Below the pieces are notes generated by a model, which saw only the letters and a list, made by a program, of their open reading frames with translations, did no database searches and had not been told where the DNA came from. Positions 3,459 to 52,551 of a DNA stretch of 64,000 bases are shown piece by piece. The stretch lies in assembly GCF_050920415.1 (NCBI RefSeq), contig NZ_CP169309.1; one strand, 5' to 3'. Positions within the stretch are counted from its first letter, which is position 1, and every line of letters begins with the position of its first letter. The translations under genes and the position numbers were made by a program. Origin of the DNA: Escherichia coli (GTDB lineage Bacteria > Pseudomonadota > Gammaproteobacteria > Enterobacterales > Enterobacteriaceae).

Positions 3459-3757
3459 GAGCCGCATTCCGGCATTTAAACGTGAATATAGCAGGGGAAA
3501 TCAACAGTTATAGAATGGCGTCGGGTGCTTGAGGCTGTCTGGCGTTAAGCATTCGCGAGGTTCCAGATGGACAAAAGCCCCAGGCGATATATCTATCAAC
3601 CTGAGGCTCGCGTTCGAACGTAGCAATTCGGATGTTAGTCTCTTCTTTGCAGGGAGGCAAGACATGTGTATATCACTGTAATTCGATATTTATGAGCAGC
3701 ATCGAAAAATAGTCCACTGATATCATCGATAATACTAAAAAAACAGGGAGGCTATTA

Positions 3758-6424
3758 ATGGAACCTTTTAAATATATATGTCATTACTGGGGGAAATCCT
3801 CAAAAAGCCTGACGAAAGGAAATGATATTCATCTGTTGATTTATCATTGCCTGGATGTTGCAGCTGTTGCAGATTGCTGGTGGGATCAATCAGTCGTACT
3901 ACAAAATGCTTTTTGCCGAAATGAAATGCTATCAAAACAGAAGGTGAAAGCCTGGCTGTTATTTTTCATTGCCCTTCATGATATCGGAAAGTTTGATATA
4001 CGATTCCAATATAAATCAGCAGAAAGTTGGCTGAAATTAAATCCTGCAACGTCATCACTTAATGGTCCATCAACACAAATGTGCCGTAAATTTAATCATG
4101 GTGCAGCCGGTCTGTATTGGTTTAACCAGGATTCACTTTCAGAGCAATCTCCCGGGGATTTTTTCAGTTTTTTTGATGCCGCTCCTCATCCTTATGAGTC
4201 CTGGTTTCCTTGGGTAGAGGCCGTTACAGGACATCATGGTTTTATATTACATTCCCAGGATCAAGATAAGTCGCGTTGGGAAATGCCAGCTTCTCTGGCA
4301 TCTTATGCTGCGCAAGATAAACAGGCTCGTGAGGAGTGGATATCTGTACTCGAAGCATTATTTTTAACACCAGCCGGGTTATCTATAAACGATATACCAC
4401 CTGATTGTTCATCATTGTTAGCAGGTTTTTGCTCGCTTGCTGACTGGTTAGGTTCCTGGACCACAACGGATACCTTTCTATTCAAAGAAGATGCACCTTC
4501 AGGCATACAAGCGCTAAGAAAATATTTTCAGGATAGACAACAGGATGCGTGTCGGGTACTGGAGTTGAGTGGCCTTGTATCAAATAAGCGTAGTTATGAC
4601 GGCGTACATGCCTTACTGGACAATGGCTATCAACCAAGACAATTACAGGTGTTGGTTGATGCTCTTCCTACAGCTCCCGGGCTGACGGTGATTGAGGCAC
4701 CTACGGGATCAGGTAAAACCGAAACAGCGCTGGCCTATGCCTGGAAACTTATTGACCAACAACTTGCGGATAGTGTTATTTTTGCCCTCCCTACACAAGC
4801 TACTGCAAATGCAATGCTCAGCAGAATGGAAGCGAACGCGAGCCGTTTATTTACCTCCCCAAATCTTATTCTTGCTCATGGTAATTCACGTTTTAACCAC
4901 CTTTTTCAATCAATAAAATCACGCGCATTTACTGAGCAGGGGCAAGAAGAAGCGTGGGTTCAGTGTTGCCAATGGTTGTCACAAAGCAATAAGAAAGTGT
5001 TTCTTGGGCAAATAGGAGTTTGCACGATTGATCAGGTGTTGATATCGGTATTGCCAGTTAAACACCGCTTTATCCGTGGTTTGGGAATTGGTCGAAGTGT
5101 TTTAATTGTTGATGAAGTTCATGCTTACGACACGTATATGAACGGCTTGCTGGAGGCTGTGCTCAAGGCTCAGGCTGATGTGGGGGGGAGTGTTATTCTT
5201 CTTTCCGCAACTCTACCAATGAAACAAAAACAGAAACTTCTGGATACTTATGGTCTGCATACAGATCCAGAGGAAAATAACTCCGCATATCCACTCATTA
5301 ACTGGCGAGGTGTGAATGGTGCGCAACGTTTTGATCTGTTAGCTCATCCAGAACAACTCCCGCCCCGCTTTTCAATTCAGCTAGAACCTATTTATTTAGC
5401 TGACATGTTACCTGACCTTACGATGTTAGAGCGAATGATCGCAGCGGCAAACGCGGGTGCACAAGTCTGTCTTATTTGCAATTTGGTTGACGTTGCACAA
5501 GTATGCTACCAACGGCTAAAGGAGCTAAATAACACGCAAGTAGATATAGATTTGTTTCATGCACGCTTTACGCTGAACGATCGTCGAGAAAAAGAGAATC
5601 GTGTTATTAGCGATTTCGGAAAAAATGGGGATCGAAATGTTGGACGAATACTTGTCGCCACGCAAGTCGTGGAACAATCGCTCGACGTTGATTTTGATTG
5701 GTTAATTACCCAGCATTGTCCCGCAGATTTGCTTTTCCAACGATTGGGCCGTTTACATCGTCATCATCGCAAATATCGTCCCGCTGGTTTTGAGATTCCT
5801 GTTGCCACCATTTTGCTGCCTGATGGCGAGGGTTACGGACGACATGAGCATATTTATAGCAACGTTAGAGTCATGTGGCGGACGCAGCAACATATTGAGG
5901 AACTTAATGGAGCATCCTTATTTTTCCCTGATGCTTACCGGCAATGGCTGGATAGCATTTACGATGATGCGGAAATGGATGAGCCAGAATGGGTCGGCAA
6001 TGGCATGGATAAATTTGAAAGCGCCGAGTGTGAAAAAAGGTTCAAGGCTCGTAAGGTTCTGCAGTGGGCTGAAGAATATAGCTTGCAGGATAACGATGAA
6101 ACCATTCTTGCGGTAACGAGGGATGGGGAAATGAGCCTGCCATTATTGCCTTATGTACAAACGTCTTCAGGTAAACAACTGCTCGATGGCCAGGTCTACG
6201 AGGACCTAAGTCATGAACAGCAGTATGAGGTGTTAGCACTTAATCGCGTCAATGTACCCTTCACTTGGAAACGTAGTTTTTCTGAAGTAGTAGATGAAGA
6301 TGGGTTACTTTGGCTGGAAGGGAAACAGAATCAGGATGGATGGATCTGGCAGGGTAATAATATTGTTATTACCTACACTCGGGATGAAGGGATGACCAGA
6401 GTCATCCCTGCAAATCCCAAATAA
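3758..6424 (+). CDS. cas3: Cas3 HD nuclease / DEAD-box helicase (type I-E)
   Basis: 888-aa ORF with an N-terminal HD domain (HDIGK), a Walker A motif (APTGSGKT) and a DEVH box; immediately precedes casABCDE. Confidence 0.95.
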   Translation: MEPFKYICHYWGKSSKSLTKGNDIHLLIYHCLDVAAVADCWWDQSVVLQNAFCRNEMLSKQKVKAWLLFFIALHDIGKFDIRFQYKSAESWLKLNPATSSLNGPSTQMCRKFNHGAAGLYWFNQDSLSEQSPGDFFSFFDAAPHPYESWFPWVEAVTGHHGFILHSQDQDKSRWEMPASLASYAAQDKQAREEWISVLEALFLTPAGLSINDIPPDCSSLLAGFCSLADWLGSWTTTDTFLFKEDAPSGIQALRKYFQDRQQDACRVLELSGLVSNKRSYDGVHALLDNGYQPRQLQVLVDALPTAPGLTVIEAPTGSGKTETALAYAWKLIDQQLADSVIFALPTQATANAMLSRMEANASRLFTSPNLILAHGNSRFNHLFQSIKSRAFTEQGQEEAWVQCCQWLSQSNKKVFLGQIGVCTIDQVLISVLPVKHRFIRGLGIGRSVLIVDEVHAYDTYMNGLLEAVLKAQADVGGSVILLSATLPMKQKQKLLDTYGLHTDPEENNSAYPLINWRGVNGAQRFDLLAHPEQLPPRFSIQLEPIYLADMLPDLTMLERMIAAANAGAQVCLICNLVDVAQVCYQRLKELNNTQVDIDLFHARFTLNDRREKENRVISDFGKNGDRNVGRILVATQVVEQSLDVDFDWLITQHCPADLLFQRLGRLHRHHRKYRPAGFEIPVATILLPDGEGYGRHEHIYSNVRVMWRTQQHIEELNGASLFFPDAYRQWLDSIYDDAEMDEPEWVGNGMDKFESAECEKRFKARKVLQWAEEYSLQDNDETILAVTRDGEMSLPLLPYVQTSSGKQLLDGQVYEDLSHEQQYEVLALNRVNVPFTWKRSFSEVVDEDGLLWLEGKQNQDGWIWQGNNIVITYTRDEGMTRVIPANPK

Positions 6425-6838
6425 CTTCGGGAATGATTGGTATCAATGACGATAACAAGACCAATAACGGTTTATCCCTACTTAAGTAGGGAAGGTGCAC
6501 AATGTACATCTTCTTTTAATTTCCCGGTATGAGATTTTATATTCACAGTATGAATATTTTATGTAATAAAATTTATGGTAATTATTATAACTAAAAATTT
6601 CTTTGATAATAAAACGAATAACTTGCAGATTTGAAATGCATGCATTATTGTCTTTAAACAATTCAACACATCTTAATATATGCATAGGTTAATTGTATTA
6701 AACCAATGAATATATTTTTGCAGTGAATGTGATTATTGAATTAATTACGCCGTATTTTTTCTTTGTTTTTACCGATAACGGAAGTGTGCCGACGTATAGA
6801 AATGCAGGAGAAATGTCGGAGCATATGAAGGAGAACAA
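6425..6838 (+). promoter_or_regulatory. AT-rich cas3-casA intergenic region carrying the Cascade operon promoter (H-NS/LeuO-regulated in K-12)
   Basis: 414-bp strongly AT-rich non-coding stretch directly upstream of casA. The promoter assignment comes from published K-12 work, not from exact motif positions read here. Confidence 0.45.
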
Positions 6839-8347
6839 ATGAATTTGCTTATTGATAACTGGATCCCTGTACGCCCGCGAAACGGGGGGAAAGTCCAAAT
6901 CCTAAATCTGCAATCGCTATACTGCAGTAGAGATCAGTGGCGGTTAAGTTTGCCCCGTGACGATATGGAACTGGCCGCTTTAGCACTGCTGGTTTGCATT
7001 GCACAAATTATCGCCCCGGCAAAAGATGACGTTGAATTTCGACATCGCATAATGAATCCGCTCACTGAAGATGAGTTTCAACGACTCATCGCGCCGTGGA
7101 TAGATATGTTCTACCTTAATCACGCAGAACATCCCTTTATGCAGACCAAAGGTGTCAAAGCAAATGATGTGACTCCAATGGAAAAACTATTGGCAGGGGT
7201 AAGCGGCGCGACGAATTGTGCATTTGTCAATCAACCGGGGCAGGGTGAAGCATTATGTGGTGGATGCACTGCGATTGCGTTATTCAACCAGGCGAATCAG
7301 GCACCTGGTTTTGGTGGTGGCTTTAAAAGCGGTTTACGTGGAGGAACACCTATAACCACCTTCGTATGTGGGATCGATCTTCGCTCGACGGTGTTACTCA
7401 ATGTCCTCACAATACCTCGTCTTCAAAAACAATTTCCCAATGAATCAAATACGGAAAACCAACCTACCTGGATTAAGCCTGTCAAGCCCAATGAATCTGT
7501 GCCAGCTTCGTCAATTGGGTTTGTCCGTGGCTTATTCTGGCAACCAGCGCATATTGAATTATGCGATCCCATTGGGATTGGTAAATGTTCTTGCTGTGGA
7601 CAGGAAAGCAATTTGCGTTATACAGGTTTTCTTAAGGAAAAATTTACCTTTACAGTTAATGGGCTATGGCCCCATCCGCATTCCCCTTGTCTGGTAACAG
7701 TCAAGAAAGGGGAGGTTGAGGAAAAATTTCTTGCTTTCACCACCTCCGCACCATCATGGACGCAAATCAGCCGAGTTGTGGTAGATAAGATTATTCAAAA
7801 TGAAAATGGAAATCGCGTGGCGGCGGTTGTGAATCAATTCAGAAATATTGCGCCGCAAAGTCCTCTTGAATTGATTATGGGGGGATATCGTAATAATCAA
7901 GCATCTATTCTTGAACGACGTCATGATGTGCTGATGTTTAATCAGGGGTGGCAACAATACGGCAATGTTATAAACGAAATAGTGACTGTTGGTTTGGGGT
8001 ATAAAACAGCCTTACGCAAGGCGTTATATACTTTTGTGGAAGGTATTAAAAATAAAGACTTTAAAGGGGCTGGAGTCTCTGTTCATGAGACTGCAGAAAG
8101 GCATTTCTATCGACAGAGTGAATTATTAATTCCCGATGTATTGGCGAATGTTAATTTTTCCCAGGCTGATGAGGTAATAGCTGATTTACGAGACAAACTT
8201 CATCAATTGTGTGAAATGCTATTTAATCAATCTGTAGCTCCCTATGCACATCATCCTAAATTAATAAGCACATTAGCACTCGCCCGCGCCACGCTATACA
8301 AACATTTACGGGAGTTAAAACCGCAAGGAGGGCCATCAAATGGCTGA
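6839..8347 (+). CDS. casA: Cascade large subunit Cse1/CasA
   Basis: 502-aa ORF at the head of the Cascade operon; start MNLLIDNWIPVRPR matches Cse1. Confidence 0.95.
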   Translation: MNLLIDNWIPVRPRNGGKVQILNLQSLYCSRDQWRLSLPRDDMELAALALLVCIAQIIAPAKDDVEFRHRIMNPLTEDEFQRLIAPWIDMFYLNHAEHPFMQTKGVKANDVTPMEKLLAGVSGATNCAFVNQPGQGEALCGGCTAIALFNQANQAPGFGGGFKSGLRGGTPITTFVCGIDLRSTVLLNVLTIPRLQKQFPNESNTENQPTWIKPVKPNESVPASSIGFVRGLFWQPAHIELCDPIGIGKCSCCGQESNLRYTGFLKEKFTFTVNGLWPHPHSPCLVTVKKGEVEEKFLAFTTSAPSWTQISRVVVDKIIQNENGNRVAAVVNQFRNIAPQSPLELIMGGYRNNQASILERRHDVLMFNQGWQQYGNVINEIVTVGLGYKTALRKALYTFVEGIKNKDFKGAGVSVHETAERHFYRQSELLIPDVLANVNFSQADEVIADLRDKLHQLCEMLFNQSVAPYAHHPKLISTLALARATLYKHLRELKPQGGPSNG

Positions 8348-8822
8348 TGAAATTGATGCAATGGCTTTATATCGAGCCTGGCAACAGCTGGATAACGGAG
8401 CATGTGCGCAAATTAGACGTGTTTCAGAACCTGATGATTTACGCGATATCCCTGCGTTTTATCGGTTGGTGCAACCTTTTGGTTGGGAAAACCTGCGTCA
8501 CCAACAGGCTCTTTTGCGCATGGTGTTTTGCCTGAGCGCAGGAAAGAATGTCATCCGACATCAGGATAAAAAACCGGAGCAAACAATAGGTATCTCGTTG
8601 GGAAGAGCTTTAGCCAATAGTGGAAGAATTAACGAGCGCCGTATCTTCCAATTGATTCGGGCTGACAGAACAGCCGATATGGTCCAGTTACGTCGATTGC
8701 TTGCTCACGCCGAACCCGTACTTGACTGGTCATTAATGGCCCGGATGTTGACCTGGTGGGGAAAGCGCGAACGCCAGCAACTTCTGGAAGATTTTGTATT
8801 GACCACAAACAAAAATGCGTAA
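8340..8822 (+). CDS. casB: Cascade small subunit Cse2/CasB
   Basis: 160-aa ORF overlapping the casA 3' end by 8 nt; position and size match Cse2. Confidence 0.93.
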   Translation: MADEIDAMALYRAWQQLDNGACAQIRRVSEPDDLRDIPAFYRLVQPFGWENLRHQQALLRMVFCLSAGKNVIRHQDKKPEQTIGISLGRALANSGRINERRIFQLIRADRTADMVQLRRLLAHAEPVLDWSLMARMLTWWGKRERQQLLEDFVLTTNKNA

Positions 8823-8834
8823 GGAAACCTCTCA

Positions 8835-9926
8835 ATGTCTAATTTTATTAATATCCATGTCCTGATCTCTCACAGCCCTTCATGTCTGAACCGCGACGAT
8901 ATGAACATGCAGAAAGACGCTATTTTCGGCGGGAAAAGGCGAGTAAGAATTTCAAGTCAAAGCCTTAAACGTGCGATGCGTAAAAGTGATTATTACGCAC
9001 AAAATATTGGTGAATCCAGTCTCAGAACAATTCATCTTGCACAATTACGTGATGTTCTTCGGCAAAAACTTGGTGAACGTTTTGAGCAAAAAATCATCGA
9101 TAAGACATTAGCTCTGCTCTCCGGTAAATCAGTTGATGAAGCTGAAAAGATTTCTGCCGATGCGGTTACTCCCTGGGTTGTGGGAGAAATAGCCTGGTTC
9201 TGTGAGCAGGTTGCAAAAGCAGAGGCAGATAATCTGGATGATAAAAAGCTGCTCAAAATTCTTAAGGAAGATATTGCCGCTATCCGTGTGAATTTACAGC
9301 AGGGGGTTGATATTGCGCTTAGCGGAAGAATGGCAACCAGCGGCATGATGAGTGAGTTGGGAAAAGTTGATGGTGCAATGTCCATTGCGCACGCGATCAC
9401 GACCCATCAGGTTGATTCTGATATTGACTGGTTCACCGCCGTAGATGATTTACAGGAACAAGGTTCTGCACATCTGGGAACACAGGAATTTTCATCGGGT
9501 GTTTTTTATCGTTATGCCAACATTAACCTTGCTCAACTTCAGGAAAATTTAGGCGGCGCCTCCTGGGAGCAGGCTCTGGAAATTGCAACCCATGTTGTTC
9601 ATATGCTGGCAACAGAGGTCCCTGGAGCAAAACAGCGTACTTATGCCGCTTTTAACCCTGCGGAGATGGTAATGGTTAATTTCTCCGATATGCCACTTTC
9701 TATGGCAAATGCTTTTGAAAAAGCGGTGAAAGCGAAAGATGGCTTTTTGCAACCGTCTATACAGGCGTTTAATCAATATTGGGATCGCGTTGCGAATGGC
9801 TATGGTCTGAACGGAGCTGCTGCGCAATTTAGCTTGTCTGACATGGACCCAATTACTGCTCAGGTTAAACAAATGCCTACTTTAGAACAGTTAAAATCCT
9901 GGGTTCGTAATAATGGCGAGGCGTGA
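8835..9926 (+). CDS. casC: Cascade backbone subunit Cas7/CasC
   Basis: 363-aa ORF in operon position 3. Confidence 0.95.
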
Positions 9927-9928
9927 AC

Positions 9929-10603
9929 ATGAGATCTTATTTGATCTTGCGGCTTGCTGGGCCAATGCAAGCCTGGGGGCTGCCGACCTTTGAAGGAACG
10001 CGACCTACCGGAAGATTTCCGACCCGAAGCGGGTTATTAGGGCTACTCGGGGCTTGTCTTGGGATCCAACGTGATGATACTTCTTCATTACAGGTGTTAT
10101 CAGAGAGTGTGCAATTTGCAGTGCGTTGCGATGAACTCATTCTTGACGATCGTCGTGTGTCTGTAACGGGGTTGCGTGATTACCATACAGTCCTTGGAGC
10201 GCGAGAAGATTACCGTGGTTTGAAAAGTCATGAAACGATTCAAACATGGCGCGAATATTTATGTGATGCCTCCTTTACCGTCGCTATCTGGTTAACACCA
10301 CAGGCAACGATGGTTATGTCAGAACTTGAAAAAGCAGTATTAAAGCCTCGGTATACACCGTATCTGGGGCGGAGGAGTTGTCCGCTAACACAACCGCTTT
10401 TTCTCGGGACATGTCAGGCGTCGGATCCTCAGAAGGCGCTATTAAATTATGAGCCCGTTGGCGGCGATATTTATAGTGAGGAATCAGTTGACGGGCATCA
10501 TTTAAAATTTACGGTGCGCGACGAACCGATGATCACCTTACCTCGACAATTTGCTTCCCGGGAATGGTATGTGATTAAAGGAGGTATGGATGTATCTCAG
10601 TAA
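9929..10603 (+). CDS. casD: Cascade subunit Cas5/CasD
   Basis: 224 aa from the ATG at 9929 (the ORF track begins 2 codons earlier at a GTG); start MRSYLILRLAGPMQAWG. Confidence 0.9.
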   Translation: MRSYLILRLAGPMQAWGLPTFEGTRPTGRFPTRSGLLGLLGACLGIQRDDTSSLQVLSESVQFAVRCDELILDDRRVSVTGLRDYHTVLGAREDYRGLKSHETIQTWREYLCDASFTVAIWLTPQATMVMSELEKAVLKPRYTPYLGRRSCPLTQPLFLGTCQASDPQKALLNYEPVGGDIYSEESVDGHHLKFTVRDEPMITLPRQFASREWYVIKGGMDVSQ

Positions 10604-11189
10604 AATCATCATTGCCAGGGCCTGTAGCAGGGATCTTTACCAACTTCACCAGGGATTATGGCATTTATTTCCAAATAGACCAGATGCTGCTCGTGATTTT
10701 CTTTTTCATGTTGAGAAGCGAAACACACCAGAAGGCTGTCATGTTTTATTGCAGTCAGCGCAAATGCCTGTTTCAACTGCCGTTGCGACAGTCATTAAAA
10801 CTAAACAGGTTGAATTTCAACTTCAGGTTGGTGTTCCACTCTATTTTCGGCTTCGGGCAAATCCGATCAAAACTATTCTCGACAATCAAAAGCGTCTGGA
10901 CAGTAAAGGGAATATTAAACGCTGTCGGGTTCCGTTAATAAAAGAAGCAGAACAAATCGCGTGGTTGCAACGTAAATTGGGCAATGCGGCGCGCGTTGAA
11001 GATGTGCATCCCATATCGGAACGGCCACAGTATTTTTCTGGGGAAGGTAAAAATGGAAAAATCCAAACGGTTTGCTTTGAAGGTGTGCTCACCGTCAATG
11101 ACGCATCAGCGTTAATGGATCTTATACAGCAAGGTATTGGGCCAGCCAAATCGATGGGATGTGGTTTGCTATCTTTGGCTCCACTGTGA
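10590..11189 (+). CDS. casE: Cas6e/CasE pre-crRNA endoribonuclease
   Basis: 199-aa ORF overlapping the casD 3' end; Cas6e family. Confidence 0.95.
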   Translation: MYLSKIIIARACSRDLYQLHQGLWHLFPNRPDAARDFLFHVEKRNTPEGCHVLLQSAQMPVSTAVATVIKTKQVEFQLQVGVPLYFRLRANPIKTILDNQKRLDSKGNIKRCRVPLIKEAEQIAWLQRKLGNAARVEDVHPISERPQYFSGEGKNGKIQTVCFEGVLTVNDASALMDLIQQGIGPAKSMGCGLLSLAPL

Positions 11190-11204
11190 TTGAGGTGTAA
11201 TAAA

Positions 11205-12408
<1,204 letters not shown>

Positions 12409-12513: not shown

Positions 12514-13701
12514 GAGTTCCCCGCGCCAGCGGGGATAAACCGCTCGCGTATACTCTCTGCCAACGTCTCCAGATGAGTTCCCCGCGCCAGCGGGGATAAA
12601 CCGGCGGGATTATCGGCACTGACGTCGGCGCTGTGGAGTTCCCCGCGCCAGCGGGGATAAACCGGGTCGCTTCCATATATGAACCTTGAGGATTAGGAGT
12701 TCCCCGCGCCAGCGGGGATAAACCGGTTCCATGCACTGCCCGCAGTGTCAGCCGTACGAGTTCCCCGCGCCAGCGGGGATAAACCGGTAAATCATACGTT
12801 GGCATCAGTATTTTTCTCGAGTTCCCCGCGCCAGCGGGGATAAACCGACTCCGCGCCATTTGAGAATTCTCAGTTCTGCGAGTTCCCCGCGCCAGCGGGG
12901 ATAAACCGCTACTGCTGTCAGACGGCAGGGCAAAACAGCGGAGTTCCCCGCGCCAGCGGGGATAAACCGGACGTGCGGATGCTGTTTCTGGTTTTACCTC
13001 CGAGTTCCCCGCGCCAGCGGGGATAAACCGTTTTTTCTCAGCGTCTGGCAGAGCTAATCGCCGAGTTCCCCGCGCCAGCGGGGATAAACCGGTGTCAAAT
13101 TTCATGTAATTGATGATCCAGCTGAGTTCCCCGCGCCAGCGGGGATAAACCGGGTATTTCTCGTTAACACGGTCGTATCAAAACGAGTTCCCCGCGCCAG
13201 CGGGGATAAACCGAGGGGTTGCAACCATAGCCCTTAGTTGATTGCGAGTTCCCCGCGCCAGCGGGGATAAACCGCCAGTGGATTTTAATAAACTCTCCAG
13301 CGAGCAGAGTTCCCCGCGCCAGCGGGGATAAACCGTTCGCCACGTCAGGCGTGATTTCCTGCACTGAGAGTTCCCCGCGCCAGCGGGGATAAACAGGGCG
13401 CGTCTGCGCCCGCTAGGACTCGTGTCAAGAGTTCCCCGCGCCAGCGGGGATAAACCGGGAGTTCAGACATAGGTGGAATGATGGACTACGAGTTCCCCGC
13501 GTTAGCGGGGATAAACCGCCCGGTAGCCAGGTTTGCAACGCCTGAACCGAGAGTTCCCCGCGCCAGCAGGGATAAATCGGCAACGACGGTGAGATTTCAC
13601 GCCTGACGCTGGTGTTCCCCGCATCAGCGGGGATAAACCGGGCGCACTGGATGCGATGATGGATATCACTTAGAATTCCCCGCCCCTGCGGTAGAACTCC
13701 C
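12514..13701 (+). CRISPR. Type I-E CRISPR array: 19 regular 29-bp repeats plus one degenerate terminal repeat, 19 spacers of 32 bp
   Basis: Repeat GAGTTCCCCGCGCCAGCGGGGATAAACCG recurs with an exact 61-bp period from 12514 to 13612. Repeats at 13368, 13490, 13551 and 13612 carry point variants, and a heavily degenerate terminal repeat sits at 13673-13701. Confidence 0.97.
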
Positions 13702-19560: not shown

Positions 19561-20039
19561 TGCGAATTGGACACGGTTTTGACGTACACGCCTTTGGCGG
19601 TGAAGGCCCAATTATCATTGGTGGCGTACGCATTCCTTACGAAAAAGGGTTGCTGGCGCATTCTGATGGCGACGTGGCGTTACATGCACTGACCGATGCA
19701 TTGCTTGGTGCAGCGGCGTTGGGGGATATCGGCAAGCTGTTCCCGGATACCGATCCATCATTTAAAGGGGCCGACAGCCGCGAATTGCTGCGCGAAGCCT
19801 GGCGTCGTATTCAGGCGAAGGGGTATACCCTCGGTAACGTCGATGTCACTATCATCGCTCAGGCACCGAAGATGTTGCCGCATATTCCACAAATGCGCGT
19901 GTTTATTGCCGAAGATCTCGGCTGCCATATGGATGATGTTAACGTGAAAGCCACTACTACGGAAAAATTAGGATTTACCGGGCGTGGGGAAGGGATTGCC
20001 TGTGAAGCGGTGGCGCTACTCATTAAGGCAACAAAATGA
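19560..20039 (+). CDS. ispF: 2-C-methyl-D-erythritol 2,4-cyclodiphosphate synthase
   Basis: 159-aa ORF, IspF family; 1-nt overlap with ispD. Confidence 0.95.
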
Positions 20040-21065
20040 TTGAGTTTGATAATCTCACTTACCTCCACGGTAAACCGCAAGGTACCGGGCTGCTGAAAGC
20101 CAATCCGGAAGACTTTGTGGTGGTGGAAGATTTGGGCTTTGAGCCTGATGGTGAAGGTGAGCATATTCTGGTTAGAATCCTCAAAAACGGCTGTAATACC
20201 CGTTTTGTGGCGGATGCACTGGCGAAATTCCTGAAAATTCATGCCCGTGAAGTCAGCTTCGCTGGGCAAAAAGACAAACATGCTGTTACGGAACAGTGGT
20301 TATGCGCTCGCGTGCCAGGCAAAGAGATGCCCGATCTCAGTGCTTTTCAACTGGAAGGTTGTCAGGTGCTGGAGTATGCGCGGCACAAGCGTAAGCTGCG
20401 TTTAGGGGCGCTGAAAGGTAACGCTTTTACCCTGGTACTCCGCGAAGTGAGCAATCGTGATGACGTTGAACAACGTCTGATCGATATTTGCGTAAAAGGT
20501 GTACCGAACTACTTTGGTGCCCAACGTTTTGGTATTAGCGGCAGCAACTTGCAGGGTGCGCTGCGCTGGGCGCAAACCAATACTCCGGTGCGTGATCGCA
20601 ATAAACGGAGTTTTTGGTTGTCGGCAGCCCGCAGTGCGTTGTTTAATCAGATTGTTGCTGAGCGCCTCAAAAAAGCAGACGTTAATCAAGTTGTTGACGG
20701 CGATGCGCTACAATTAGCCGGACGTGGCAGCTGGTTTGTTGCCTCCAATGAAGAACTGGCGGAATTACAGCGTCGCGTCAACGATAAAGAGCTGATGATT
20801 ACTGCTGCATTGCCGGGCAGTGGCGAATGGGGAACTCAGCGTGAAGCGCTGGCATTCGAACAAGCAGCTGTCGCCGAAGAAACTGAATTGCAAGCCTTAC
20901 TGGTGCGCGAAAAAGTTGAAGCCGCGCGCAGAGCGATGCTGCTGTATCCGCAACAATTAAGCTGGAACTGGTGGGATGACGTCACCGTAGAAATCCGTTT
21001 CTGGCTTCCGGCAGGCAGTTTTGCGACCAGCGTTGTCAGGGAACTTATCAACACAACAGGTGATT

Positions 21066-22586: not shown

Positions 22587-23726
22587 ATGAGCGCGGGAAG
22601 CCCAAAATTCACCGTTCGCCGCATTGCGGCTTTGTCACTGGTTTCGCTATGGCTGGCAGGCTGTTCTGACACTTCAAATCCACCGGCACCGGTCAGCTCC
22701 GTTAATGGCAATGCGTCTGCAAACACCAATTCTGGTATGTTGATTACGCCGCCGCCGAAAATGGGGACGACGTCTACAACGCAGCAACCGCAAATTCAGC
22801 CGGTACAGCAGCCACAAATTCAATCTGCACAACAACCGCAAATCCAGCCGGTGCAGCCAGTTGCTCAGCCGCCGGTACAGATGGAAAACGGACGCATCGT
22901 CTACAACCGTCAGTATGGGAACATTCCGAAAGGCAGTTATAGCGGCAGTACATACACCGTGAAAAAAGGCGACACACTTTTCTATATCGCCTGGATTACT
23001 GGCAATGATTTCCGTGACCTTGCTCAGCGCAACAATATTCAGGCACCATACGCGCTGAATGTAGGTCAGACCTTACAGGTGGGTAATGCTTCCGGTACGC
23101 CAATCACTGGTGGAAATGCCATTACCCAGGCCGATGCAGCAGAGCAAGGAGTTGTGATCAAGCCTGCACAAAATTCCACCGTTGCTGTTGCGTCGCAACC
23201 GACAATTACGTATTCTGAGTCTTCGGGTGAACAGAGTGCTAACAAAATGTTGCCGAACAACAAGCCAACTGGGACCACGGTCACAGCGCCTGTAACGGTA
23301 CCAACAGCAAGCACAACCGAGCCGACTGTCAGCAGTACATCAACCAGTGCGCCTATCTCCACCTGGCGCTGGCCGACTGAGGGCAAAGTGATCGAAACCT
23401 TTGGTGCTTCTGAGGGGGGCAACAAGGGGATTGATATCGCAGGCAGCAAAGGACAGGCAATTATCGCGACCGCAGATGGCCGCGTTGTTTATGCCGGTAA
23501 CGCGCTGCGCGGCTACGGTAATCTGATTATCATCAAACATAATGATGATTACCTGAGTGCCTACGCCCATAACGACACAATGCTGGTCCGGGAACAACAA
23601 GAAGTGAAGGCGGGGCAAAAAATAGCGACTATGGGTAGCACCGGAACCAGTTCAACACGCTTGCATTTTGAAATTCGTTACAAGGGGAAATCCGTAAACC
23701 CGCTGCGCTATTTGCCGCAGCGATAA
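22587..23726 (+). CDS. nlpD: Lipoprotein NlpD (LysM domain plus degenerate M23 peptidase domain; activator of cell-wall amidase)
   Basis: 379-aa ORF with a lipobox (LAGCS), a Q/P-rich repeat linker, LysM and a C-terminal LytM domain. Confidence 0.95.
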
Positions 23727-23788
23727 ATCGGCGGAACCAGGCTTTTGCTTGAATGTTCCGTCAAGGGATCACGGGTAGGAGCCACCTT
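23200..23788 (+). promoter_or_regulatory. Approximate region of the major rpoS promoter and long 5' leader lying inside the nlpD coding sequence
   Basis: Published K-12 work places the main rpoS promoter inside nlpD with a leader of roughly 570 nt; coordinates are approximate and no -10/-35 was pinpointed here. Confidence 0.4.
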
Positions 23789-24781
23789 ATGAGTCAGAAT
23801 ACGCTGAAAGTTCATGATTTAAATGAAGATGCGGAATTTGATGAGAACGGAGTTGAGGTTTTTGACGAAAAGGCCTTAGTAGAAGAGGAACCCAGTGATA
23901 ACGATTTGGCCGAAGAGGAACTGTTATCGCAAGGGGCCACACAGCGTGTGTTGGACGCGACTCAGCTTTACCTTGGTGAGATTGGTTATTCACCACTGTT
24001 AACGGCCGAAGAAGAAGTTTATTTTGCGCGTCGCGCACTGCGAGGAGATGTTGCCTCCCGCCGCCGGATGATCGAGAGTAACTTGCGTCTGGTGGTAAAA
24101 ATTGCCCGCCGTTATGGCAATCGTGGTCTGGCTTTGCTGGATCTTATCGAAGAGGGCAACCTGGGGCTGATCCGCGCGGTAGAGAAGTTTGACCCGGAAC
24201 GTGGTTTCCGCTTCTCAACATACGCAACCTGGTGGATTCGCCAAACGATCGAACGGGCGATTATGAACCAAACCCGTACTATTCGTTTGCCGATTCACAT
24301 CGTAAAGGAGCTGAACGTTTACCTGCGAACCGCACGTGAGTTGTCCCATAAGCTGGACCACGAACCAAGTGCGGAAGAGATCGCAGAGCAGCTGGATAAG
24401 CCAGTTGATGACGTCAGCCGTATGCTTCGTCTTAACGAGCGCATTACCTCGGTAGACACCCCGCTGGGTGGAGATTCCGAAAAAGCGTTGCTGGACATCC
24501 TGGCCGATGAAAAAGAAAACGGCCCGGAAGATACCACGCAAGATGACGATATGAAACAAAGCATCGTCAAATGGCTGTTCGAACTGAACGCCAAACAGCG
24601 TGAAGTGCTGGCACGTCGATTCGGTTTGCTGGGGTACGAAGCGGCAACACTGGAAGATGTAGGTCGTGAAATTGGCCTCACCCGTGAACGTGTTCGCCAG
24701 ATTCAGGTTGAAGGCCTGCGCCGTTTGCGCGAAATCCTGCAAACGCAGGGGCTGAATATCGAAGCGCTGTTCCGCGAATAA
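23789..24781 (+). CDS. rpoS: RNA polymerase sigma factor sigma-S (sigma-38)
   Basis: 330 aa from the ATG at 23789 ([17 protein letters not shown]...); sigma-70 family regions 2-4; codon 33 is GAG (Glu). Confidence 0.96.
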
Positions 24782-24796
24782 GTAAGCATCTGTCAG

Positions 24797-24834
24797 AAAG
24801 GCCAGTCTCTTATGAGGCTGGCCTTTTTCTTTTG
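24797..24834 (+). terminator. Rho-independent terminator of rpoS
   Basis: Hairpin ggccag-N12-ctggcc followed by tttttctttt, 16 nt after the rpoS stop. Confidence 0.65.
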
Positions 24835-24901
24835 TATGGGGAGTTGGTGTGTTTCGTCGCCTGGATAAGACACGTCAGCGTCCCATCCGGCAATCAACAT
24901 C

Positions 24902-25309
24902 CTATTTGCTCATCATCTTGCGCACCAGCTGCATAAACAGCTCCTGCTCTTCTCCACTCAAACGCCCCAAAAATTCCTCATCCACACTGTCGCCAATCGG
25001 TATCGCCGCAGCAAGTACCTTTTCTCCTTCGGCAGTCAGCCAGACAAAGCGTCGCCGCTTATCAGCGGTGTCATGTTCACGTCTGACTAAGCCACGATTT
25101 TCCATTCTTGCCAACATTTCTGCCAGCGTTGCTTTGGTGCTGACGGCTGCTTCCATCAGTGCCACCTGTTCGATACCAGGTTTATCAGCAATGGCGCGCA
25201 TCACCGCGTACTGTGGTTTGGTCAGGTCAGGTAACTCGTGCTGCCAGCGGGCCGTATGCTGCTGAAAAAGCTGTCGTAACTGATGGAACGCTTTATTTCG
25301 TAACGCCAT
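24902..25309 (-). CDS. MarR/SlyA-family transcriptional regulator
   Basis: 135-aa ORF with winged-helix MarR-like sequence; divergent from the decarboxylase operon. Confidence 0.8.
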   Translation of the reverse strand: MALRNKAFHQLRQLFQQHTARWQHELPDLTKPQYAVMRAIADKPGIEQVALMEAAVSTKATLAEMLARMENRGLVRREHDTADKRRRFVWLTAEGEKVLAAAIPIGDSVDEEFLGRLSGEEQELFMQLVRKMMSK

Positions 25310-25455
25310 GTAAACTCCGGGCTAATTCTCTGTCGCTATCATAGCGGTTTTTCAGTGACGAAGAAGATGTTGTTACTTTTCAATCCTTGCCGCTGTGGAA
25401 ATGAAGGAGTATGTTAATAATAACGTTCGTATACGAACAATTAAGATAGTAAGCA

Positions 25456-26049
25456 ATGAAACTGATCGTCGGGATGACAGGGGCTACCGGTGCGCCTCTT
25501 GGTGTGGCATTACTGCAAGCGCTGCGGGAGATGCCGAATGTCGAGACTCATCTGGTGATGTCGAAGTGGGCGAAAACCACTATTGAACTGGAAACGCCTT
25601 ACAGCGCTCGCGATGTTGCCGCCCTCGCTGACTTCAGCCATAACCCGGCGGATCAGGCTGCGACCATCTCTTCCGGCTCCTTTCGTACCGACGGCATGAT
25701 CGTTATTCCATGCAGTATGAAAACGCTCGCCGGTATCCGCGCTGGTTACGCCGATGGTCTCGTAGGGCGCGCGGCGGACGTCGTGCTCAAAGAAGGCCGC
25801 AAACTGGTGCTGGTGCCGCGTGAAATGCCGCTTAGCACCATCCATCTCGAAAATATGCTCGCACTTTCGCGCATGGGCGTGGCGATGGTGCCGCCGATGC
25901 CTGCCTTTTATAACCATCCCGAAACGGTAGATGACATTGTCCACCACGTGGTAGCCCGCGTGCTGGATCAATTTGGCCTCGAACATCCTCACGCCAGGCG
26001 CTGGCAAGGGTTGCCGCAGGCCCGGAATTTTTCTCAGGAGAATGAATAA
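25456..26049 (+). CDS. ecdB: UbiX/Pad1-like flavin prenyltransferase (decarboxylase B subunit)
   Basis: 197-aa ORF (MKLIVGMTGATGAPLGVALLQAL...), UbiX family. The ecdB name is as recalled for the E. coli O157 homologue. Confidence 0.85.
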   Translation: MKLIVGMTGATGAPLGVALLQALREMPNVETHLVMSKWAKTTIELETPYSARDVAALADFSHNPADQAATISSGSFRTDGMIVIPCSMKTLAGIRAGYADGLVGRAADVVLKEGRKLVLVPREMPLSTIHLENMLALSRMGVAMVPPMPAFYNHPETVDDIVHHVVARVLDQFGLEHPHARRWQGLPQARNFSQENE

Positions 26050-27476
26050 TGGCATTTGATGATTTACGCAGCTTTTTACAGGCGCTCGACGACCAGGGGC
26101 AATTGCTGAAAATCAGCGAAGAGGTGAATGCCGAGCCGGATCTGGCTGCCGCTGCCAACGCCACCGGGCGTATCGGCGACGGCGCGCCCGCGCTGTGGTT
26201 TGATAATATTCGCGGCTTTACCGATGCGCGCGTGGCGATGAACACCATCGGCTCCTGGCAGAACCACGCGATTTCCCTCGGGCTGCCACCGAACACACCG
26301 GTTAAAAAACAGATTGATGAGTTTATCCGCCGCTGGGATAACTTTCCCATTGCCCCGGAACGCCGCGCCAATCCTGCCTGGGCGCAGAACACCGTCGATG
26401 GCGACGAGATCAATTTGTTCAATATCCTGCCGCTGTTTCGTTTAAACGATGGCGATGGCGGTTTCTATCTCGACAAAGCGTGCGTGGTTTCCCGCGATCC
26501 GCTCGATCCGGATAACTTCGGCAAGCAGAACGTCGGCATCTATCGCATGGAAGTGAAGGGTAAGCGTAAGCTCGGCCTGCAACCGGTGCCGATGCACGAT
26601 ATCGCCCTGCATCTGCATAAAGCAGAAGAGCGCGGTGAAGATCTGCCGATTGCGATCACGCTCGGTAACGATCCGATCATCACCCTGATGGGCGCCACCC
26701 CGCTGAAATATGATCAATCGGAGTACGAAATGGCGGGCGCACTACGCGAAAGCCCGTACCCGATCGCCACCGCCCCGCTGACCGGTTTTGATGTGCCGTG
26801 GGGCTCGGAGGTGATCCTCGAAGGGGTAATCGAAAGCCGTAAACGCGAGATTGAAGGGCCGTTCGGTGAATTTACCGGCCACTACTCCGGCGGGCGCAAC
26901 ATGACCGTGGTGCGCATCGATAAAGTCTCTTACCGCACCAAACCGATTTTTGAATCGCTCTATCTCGGTATGCCGTGGACCGAAATCGACTACCTGATGG
27001 GGCCAGCCACCTGTGTGCCGCTGTATCAGCAACTGAAAGCCGAGTTCCCGGAAGTGCAGGCGGTGAACGCTATGTACACCCACGGCCTGCTGGCGATTAT
27101 CTCCACCAAAAAACGCTATGGCGGCTTTGCCCGCGCAGTGGGCCTGCGTGCGATGACCACGCCGCACGGTCTGGGTTATGTGAAGATGGTGATTATGGTC
27201 GATGAAGACGTTGACCCGTTCAACCTGCCGCAGGTGATGTGGGCGCTCTCGTCGAAAGTGAACCCGGCAGGCGATCTGGTGCAACTGCCGAATATGTCCG
27301 TGCTGGAACTCGACCCAGGCTCAAGCCCGGCGGGGATCACCGATAAGCTGATTATCGACGCCACCACGCCTGTCGCCCCGGACAACCGTGGCCACTACAG
27401 CCAGCCGGTGGTGGACTTACCGGAAACCAAAGCCTGGGCTGAAAAACTGACCGCTATGCTGGCCGCACGTAAATAA
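26049..27476 (+). CDS. ecdC: UbiD-family reversible hydroxyarylic acid decarboxylase (C subunit)
   Basis: 475-aa UbiD-like ORF, start overlapping the upstream stop. Confidence 0.85.
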   Translation: MAFDDLRSFLQALDDQGQLLKISEEVNAEPDLAAAANATGRIGDGAPALWFDNIRGFTDARVAMNTIGSWQNHAISLGLPPNTPVKKQIDEFIRRWDNFPIAPERRANPAWAQNTVDGDEINLFNILPLFRLNDGDGGFYLDKACVVSRDPLDPDNFGKQNVGIYRMEVKGKRKLGLQPVPMHDIALHLHKAEERGEDLPIAITLGNDPIITLMGATPLKYDQSEYEMAGALRESPYPIATAPLTGFDVPWGSEVILEGVIESRKREIEGPFGEFTGHYSGGRNMTVVRIDKVSYRTKPIFESLYLGMPWTEIDYLMGPATCVPLYQQLKAEFPEVQAVNAMYTHGLLAIISTKKRYGGFARAVGLRAMTTPHGLGYVKMVIMVDEDVDPFNLPQVMWALSSKVNPAGDLVQLPNMSVLELDPGSSPAGITDKLIIDATTPVAPDNRGHYSQPVVDLPETKAWAEKLTAMLAARK

Positions 27477-27486
27477 GGAGAACAAG

Positions 27487-27723
27487 ATGATTTGTCCACG
27501 TTGTGCCGATGAACAGATTGAAGTGATGGCGAAATCGCCGGTGAAAAATGTCTGGACGGTCTACCAGTGCCAGCATTGCCTTTATACCTGGCGCGATACT
27601 GAACCGCTACGCCGCACCAGCCGCGAACATTATCCCGAAGCCTTCCGCATGACGCAGAAAGATATTGATGACGCGCCGATGGTGCCGAGCATCCCGCCGC
27701 TGCTGGCGGAAGGTAAGCGCTAA
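27487..27723 (+). CDS. ecdD: Small decarboxylase-associated subunit D with a Cys-rich zinc-ribbon-like motif
   Basis: 78-aa ORF with CPRC...CQHC motifs, immediately downstream of the UbiD-like gene as in bsdBCD/vdcBCD-type operons. Confidence 0.75.
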   Translation: MICPRCADEQIEVMAKSPVKNVWTVYQCQHCLYTWRDTEPLRRTSREHYPEAFRMTQKDIDDAPMVPSIPPLLAEGKR

Positions 27724-51823: not shown

Positions 51824-52135
51824 ATGCACATCATTTCTAAAGCGCCATTTGAAGAGTCTGCGCGTAAATATCCTAACGACGCTCTGGCTCTACACTCATT
51901 GTATCGGGTTATTAAGGAAACGGATTTTTCTACGCCAGAAGAAATGCGAACGGCGTTTCCCAACCTCGACAATTTTAAATATCGCAATAAATGGTACGTT
52001 CTGGATGTAGGCGGGAACAATCTTAGGGTTATTGCCTACATAAACTTTGTTAATAAGCGGTTCTTTGTGAAGCACATAACGAATCATGCCGAGTATGACA
52101 AACTGACACGTTACTACAGAGAGAACAAAGAATGA
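51824..52135 (+). CDS. HigB-like type II toxin (RelE/ParE superfamily mRNA interferase)
   Basis: 103-aa ORF (MHIISKAPFEE...FPNLDNFKYRNKWYVLDVGGNNLRVIAY...) with HigB-family architecture; Shine-Dalgarno aggaag upstream; 4-nt overlap (ATGA) with the downstream antitoxin gene; AT-richer than the flanking hyc genes. Confidence 0.75.
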   Translation: MHIISKAPFEESARKYPNDALALHSLYRVIKETDFSTPEEMRTAFPNLDNFKYRNKWYVLDVGGNNLRVIAYINFVNKRFFVKHITNHAEYDKLTRYYRENKE

Positions 52136-52551
52136 CTGCTAATGCTGCACGCGCTGTTAAAGCAACAAGAGAACTGGTCAATGCAGTCCCCTTTCTGGGA
52201 GGCAGTGACTCAGAAGATGATTATCGTGAAGCACTGGAACTGGTCGAATATTTGATTGAAGAAGATGACACCAATCCACTTATCGACTTTCTGGCGAGCC
52301 GTATTGCAGAATATGAAAACAACCACGAAAAGTTTGCAGAGTTCGATAAAGCCGTTGCAGCAATGCCGATTGGCGTGGCGTTACTTCGCACGCTGATTGA
52401 TCAACATAATCTGACCTATGCGGATTTGAAGAACGAAATCGGCTCTAAATCCCTGGTCAGTCAGATTTTGTCTGGACAAAGATCCCTGACGATATCCCAC
52501 ATTAAGGCACTTTCAGCCCGATTTGGCGTTAAGCCGGAATGGTTTCTTTGA
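52132..52551 (+). CDS. HigA-like antitoxin (XRE-family HTH)
   Basis: 139-aa ORF whose C-terminal HTH (GSKSLVSQILSGQRSLTISHIKALSARFGV) and N-terminal region resemble HigA; toxin-first gene order typical of higBA. Confidence 0.75.
   Translation: MTANAARAVKATRELVNAVPFLGGSDSEDDYREALELVEYLIEEDDTNPLIDFLASRIAEYENNHEKFAEFDKAVAAMPIGVALLRTLIDQHNLTYADLKNEIGSKSLVSQILSGQRSLTISHIKALSARFGVKPEWFL

Follow-up and report, generated by a model that had tools for sequence, protein, structure and literature searches.

Does the codon at position 33 of rpoS mark the present stretch of DNA (the window, 64,000 nucleotides in its entirety) as carrying an unusual allele, and what does it reveal about the strain of origin? 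The product, sigma-S, binds core RNA polymerase in place of sigma-70 when cells are stressed or in stationary phase, and drives the general stress regulon. A sequence-only reading of the window had reported GAG at this codon, an intact gene and a background other than MG1655. The best explanation of the evidence presented below, to which a probability of roughly 0.96 is assigned, is an ordinary, ancestral Glu33 rpoS encoding a full-length sigma-S in a natural Escherichia lineage other than K-12, which is most likely cryptic clade I; no sequence feature contradicting this reading was found in the window. The gene and the codon are located as follows:

23789..24781, plus strand: rpoS coding sequence (sigma-S, sigma-38), 330 codons followed by TAA, placed by the open reading frame, NCBIfam and Pfam models and the RefSeq position
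23885..23887, plus strand: codon 33, GAG (Glu), established by direct reading and codon-by-codon comparison

Translation from the ATG at 23789 to the TAA at 24779-24781 proceeds through 330 sense codons with no internal stop and no frameshift, and the count from the start (23789 + 96 = 23885) places codon 33 on GAG. On both points the sequence-only reading was accurate, and the peptide that it quoted for residues 28-38 is the same in the translation. All 329 positions of the NCBIfam RpoS equivalog model NF004207 (1-329) were covered in its alignment to the protein, which scored 604.6 bits (cut-off 394), and the RpoS equivalog model TIGR02394 gave 480.7 bits (cut-off 378.7). Furthermore, all of the sigma-70 regions were found by Pfam in the correct order, namely Sigma70_r1_2 (residues 56-88), r2 (94-163), r3 (174-248) and r4 (262-315). 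Residue 33 is located N-terminal to the first of these, region 1.2 (residues 56-88), within the acidic N-terminal tail. Because this position is outside conserved regions 1.2 to 4, both Glu and Gln would be expected to give a working protein.

Comparison with reference alleles placed the gene of the window close to that of K-12 at the protein level and clearly apart from it at the nucleotide level. MG1655 rpoS (b2741) is annotated in RefSeq as 993 bp, the same length as the gene of the window, and its domain order, leader hairpin and terminator are also those of the window. The two genes differ at 19 nucleotides in a codon-by-codon comparison, 18 of them synonymous, and 329 of the 330 residues are shared; the sole amino-acid difference is Gln33 (CAG) in MG1655 against Glu33 (GAG) in the window. 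The Gln33 form of MG1655 is also the one present in the solved holoenzyme structures 5IPL and 6KJ6. The K-12 states that had been given in the sequence-only reading were checked directly and are correct: CAG occupies codon 33 in MG1655, BW25113, MC4100 and DH10B, and TAG in W3110, EMG2, WG1, J53 and NCM3722. The amber alleles of the latter five strains share the gene and the codon position with the window, and differ from it in having a stop at position 33 where the window has a sense codon and encodes a full-length product. A K-12 laboratory allele is recognized by CAG or TAG on the K-12 synonymous background; the window combines GAG with the 18 synonymous differences.

The frequency of each codon 33 state was surveyed with 73-nt probes centred on the codon in 5,426 complete RefSeq E. 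coli genomes, 5,414 of which contain rpoS. The exact matches were distributed among four probes:

Window 73-mer (GAG): 4,814 genomes, for example CFT073, Nissle 1917, 55989 and O157:H7 strains
Second GAG 73-mer, with five synonymous flank changes (E. coli 042 type): 159 genomes, for example ECO_2_R
CAG 73-mer: 173 genomes, for example MG1655, BW25113, MC4100 and DH10B
TAG 73-mer: 121 genomes, for example W3110, EMG2, WG1, J53 and NCM3722

At least 4,973 of the 5,414 rpoS-carrying genomes (92%) therefore have GAG, a lower bound, since about 147 of the 5,414 have other changes inside the probe and are outside the four-probe classification. Of the 60 matches listed for each of the CAG and TAG probes, almost all were K-12 laboratory lines. 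A different codon 33 was initially suspected among the 163 genomes in the band of 90-95% probe identity; the sampled member, ECO_2_R, has GAG with five synonymous flank differences and encodes the same protein as the window (WP_000081550.1). The probe search also returned two natural rpoS null alleles in other genomes: strain 13E0780 has TAA in place of GAA at codon 27, and in strain 2020N21-246-1 the gene is interrupted by ISEcp1 after codon 32. Near codon 33 of the window gene, no lesion of either kind was seen. BLR(DE3), a B strain, was among the exact matches to the TAG 73-mer; K-12 DNA acquired along with the neighbouring recA marker would account for this. Both CFT073 and EDL933 have been stated to carry an amber rpoS (PMC6892915). 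Contrary to that statement, the RefSeq genome of CFT073 and the sampled O157:H7 genomes match the GAG 73-mer, a discrepancy that is likely to reflect variation from stock to stock.

At the protein level, the sigma factor of the window is RefSeq WP_000081550.1, the Glu33 sigma-S commonly found in natural isolates of E. coli and Shigella and the accession given to the identical gene of E. coli MFDS1022581. The two proteins agree at all 330 residues, the nlpD-rpoS context is shared, and the differences from the common Glu33 gene are at the nucleotide level only, with no further amino-acid change. In a large protein collection, where it is entered as 'MULTISPECIES: RNA polymerase sigma factor RpoS [Enterobacteriaceae]', an exact look-up traced this sequence to at least 1000 contigs. 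The full-length nucleotide sequence is far less widespread: 2 of the 5,414 genomes have an exact copy, and 19 have one with at least 99% identity. This scarcity, despite so common a protein, is attributed to synonymous divergence in a rare lineage, probably clade I. Glu33 was also found in the aligned RpoS proteins of E. albertii, Leclercia and Klebsiella, and Glu is therefore the ancestral state. In agreement with the survey, a passage of PMC2700278, citing Atlung 2002 and Subbarayan & Sarkar 2004, describes GAG as the usual codon 33 of natural isolates, and every VTEC strain sequenced in that study had GAG (PMC2700278). Altogether, as judged from genome sequences, GAG is the species norm and the ancestral allele, and no third, special allele; the Glu33 rpoS is already described in the literature, and there is nothing new in the allele itself. 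The polymorphism at this codon is a record of K-12 laboratory stocks, in which GAG changed to the amber TAG and this in turn to CAG or TAT, and no feature of the species. Given its presence in at least 92% of the genomes and the Glu33 of the outgroups, codon 33 alone tells only that the source is not a K-12 line with CAG or TAG. It thus serves as a sanity check on strain identity, pointing to a standard wild-type rpoS and to no K-12 CAG or amber stock, and is not a discovery.

Synthesis of sigma-S is kept low by a hairpin in a long leader transcribed from within nlpD, and this hairpin is opened by the small RNAs DsrA, RprA and ArcZ together with Hfq. The gene order in the window is pcm, nlpD, rpoS, with rpoS directly 3' of nlpD and preceded by the long structured leader, and the elements around the gene are the following:

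22587..23726, plus strand: nlpD, 379 aa, from the list of open reading frames and annotated as nlpD in MG1655 and MFDS1022581
23639..23818, plus strand: 3'-terminal leader portion of the rpoS mRNA (-150 to +30), where in the predicted fold a self-inhibitory hairpin masks the ribosome-binding site
24795..24828, plus strand: terminator-like hairpin 14 nt past the rpoS stop, a 15-pair stem followed by a T run

Folding of the leader from -150 to +30 gives one and the same predicted structure for the window (-54.8 kcal/mol) and MG1655 (-54.3 kcal/mol). The sole difference from K-12 in this stretch is a C/T substitution at -81 (window 23708), which is synonymous in nlpD; beyond it, no lesion was found in the sRNA-pairing and hairpin region. 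The segment from -158 to -82 is identical to K-12 and contains GCATTTTGAAATTCGTTACAAGGGGAAATCC, known as the hairpin arm that base-pairs with the ribosome-binding site and on which DsrA, RprA and ArcZ act. From -567 to the rpoS start, the window differs from K-12 by seven substitutions, all of them inside nlpD, which holds the main rpoS promoter and most of the rpoS 5' UTR. A promoter scan of positions 23000-25500 gave no match to the sigma-70 consensus, a result that carries no information because the known rpoS promoter inside nlpD is itself no strong match to that consensus. The single Rfam match in a scan of the whole window, at 3523-3678 on the plus strand, just upstream of cas3 and distant from rpoS, was to the sok antitoxin RNA (RF01794; 97.1 bits, gathering score 59).

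The intact gene, the identity of its product to the most widespread RpoS, the unchanged translational-control hairpin and the terminator together make a working general stress response plausible in the source strain, with RpoS activity and levels also depending on genes outside the window. In VTEC strains whose rpoS differs from the consensus only by synonymous changes, catalase activity was normal (PMC2700278). The most serious alternative is that the gene is intact and the stress response is nevertheless attenuated, either because the activity or the abundance of Glu33 sigma-S is below that of the Gln33 form of MG1655, or through lesions in regulators encoded elsewhere, for which rssB, crl, hfq, dsrA, rprA, arcZ and the ira genes are candidates. 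Lower activity of the RpoS i-modulon was reported in BL21(DE3), HS and Crooks than in MG1655, and was ascribed to a residue at codon 33 that differs from that of MG1655 (PMC6892915). In addition, natural isolates often lose RpoS function, as in the codon 27 stop of 13E0780 and the ISEcp1 insertion of 2020N21-246-1. However, a defective protein is hard to square with a residue shared by at least 92% of genomes and by the other aligned genera, and catalase was normal in all tested Glu33 VTEC strains except one with a stop at codon 243 (PMC2700278). Moreover, the leader and its predicted hairpin are unchanged in the window, and the attribution to codon 33 was a suggestion of the authors and not the outcome of an allele swap (PMC6892915). 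Attenuation is consequently regarded as unlikely in this strain.

Given the transcriptome data, the cited literature does not settle the equivalence of Glu33 and Gln33 (PMC6892915). That the two forms of sigma-S differ measurably in activity or stability, as this transcriptome hint would have it, is likewise judged unlikely. Were it true, the CAG of MG1655 would represent a laboratory pseudo-revertant with a gain of activity, and natural Glu33 strains, the probable clade I source included, would run a quantitatively weaker RpoS regulon.

A far weaker alternative concerns the numbering itself. An in-frame ATG is present 36 nt 5' of the rpoS start (23753-23788), and mechanical callers of open reading frames accordingly give a protein of 342 aa and not 330; the mechanical list for the window likewise carries the frame up to ATG 23753. 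Were translation to begin there, GAG would be codon 45 and the codon numbering would be off. Four observations favour ATG 23789 instead. The alignment with the RpoS equivalog model begins at residue 1 of the 330-residue form; RefSeq annotates a gene of 993 bp in MG1655 as well as in MFDS1022581; the solved RpoS chains of E. coli open with MSQNTLKV, as does the 330-residue form of the window; and a TAGGAG Shine-Dalgarno sequence is located a few bases 5' of ATG 23789. In the MFDS1022581 locus used for comparison, the RefSeq rpoS (20001-20993) corresponds to window 23789-24781, so that the numbering obtained by alignment with reference alleles agrees with both MG1655 and MFDS1022581. Initiation at the upstream ATG is therefore considered very improbable, and the ordinary 330-residue Glu33 sigma-S is retained.

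The remaining question is the background in which this allele resides. The closest relative of the window is E. coli MFDS1022581, isolated from animal-source food in South Korea, which differs by 5 SNPs and a 305 bp indel in the CRISPR array. Lineage identity was measured on window positions 39001-64000 (25 kb) and 3484-44780. Over the former, the best genomes after MFDS1022581 were N96 (99.0%), 2013C-4282 (98.4%), WL297 (98.3%) and EC42405 (98.1%), while nearly all of the other approximately 5,400 complete genomes showed at most 95.9% identity. Two of these strains, 2013C-4282 and EC42405, appear in a published list of complete cryptic clade I genomes; within this Escherichia clade, average nucleotide identity exceeds 98.3%, compared with more than 95.9% to E. 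coli sensu stricto (PMC10100065). Identities at the level expected of a clade I member, about 98.3% or more to clade I and about 96% to sensu stricto, were thus found over 25 kb of the window. The source is probably a member of Escherichia cryptic clade I rather than of E. coli sensu stricto, an assignment based on nucleotide identity within the 64 kb; the clade I-specific marker gene is located elsewhere in the genome. The non-MG1655 background that had been proposed from the sequence is in fact more firmly grounded than was claimed, since it follows from the 18 synonymous differences in rpoS, flanks with 96.7-97.3% identity to MG1655, near-identity to MFDS1022581 and 98-98.4% identity to clade I genomes.

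A K-12 laboratory derivative in which the amber codon had reverted to GAG is refuted by the synonymous differences and by flanks that are merely 97.3% (up to 24827) and 96.7% (from 27723 on) identical to MG1655, together with a 2.9 kb insertion, near-identity to a food isolate and closest similarity to clade I genomes, even though a passage of PMC2700278, citing Atlung 2002, describes K-12 stocks with GAG at codon 33. The added value of the analysis is in the background, a match to a lineage that is hard to tell from E. coli and that is a reported source of Stx- and enterotoxin-producing strains. The sigma-S of the probable clade I source is the same protein as that of mainstream E. coli. As a minor corollary, purifying selection on sigma-S would appear to have been very strong since clade I and E. 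coli separated, with 0 non-synonymous and 18 synonymous changes.

Downstream of rpoS, the window departs from K-12 in gene content. The MG1655 alignment stops at window 24827 and restarts at 27723 with ygbN, which is directly 3' of rpoS in MG1655; in the window, the two genes are separated by a segment carrying a MarR-type regulator and decarboxylase genes:

24828..27722: 2.9 kb segment absent from K-12, seen as a gap in the MG1655 alignment
24902-25309, minus strand: MarR/SlyA-like regulator, by Pfam MarR and RefSeq product
25456-26049, within the 2.9 kb segment: hydroxyarylic acid decarboxylase subunit B, by RefSeq product name, with Pfam Flavoprotein and UbiD domains found in the segment
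26049-27476, within the 2.9 kb segment: hydroxyarylic acid decarboxylase subunit C, by RefSeq product name
27487-27723, within the 2.9 kb segment: hydroxyarylic acid decarboxylase subunit D, by RefSeq product name

The left junction of the segment (24827/24828) coincides with the 3' end of the rpoS terminator hairpin, and the right junction is at 27722/27723. Insertion of the decarboxylase genes is a long-known polymorphism of the mutS-rpoS region, and the form present in the window retains ygbN (PMC4209514). This arrangement matches the 'o454-nlpD 4.5 kb' type of mutS-rpoS region exemplified by EPEC E2348/69, in which slyA-kpdBCD adjoins rpoS and ygbN is retained. The shared order is rpoS, the slyA-like regulator, kpdB, kpdC, kpdD, ygbN to ygbI, pphB and mutS, and the comparison, which was made by gene content, revealed no difference in that respect.

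Several further features were recorded elsewhere in the window. A type I-E CRISPR array of approximately 20 repeats with a period of 61 nt occupies 12514-13700, downstream of a cas3-cas2 operon (3758-12400); it is longer by 305 bp, or five repeat-spacer units, than the array of the near-identical MFDS1022581. In addition, two genes overlapping by 4 nt at 51824-52551 on the plus strand encode a toxin of the HigB family (Pfam PF09907, 103 aa) and a helix-turn-helix partner of 139 aa. The pair is situated between hycI and ascB, and is presumably the toxin-antitoxin insertion mentioned in the sequence-only reading.
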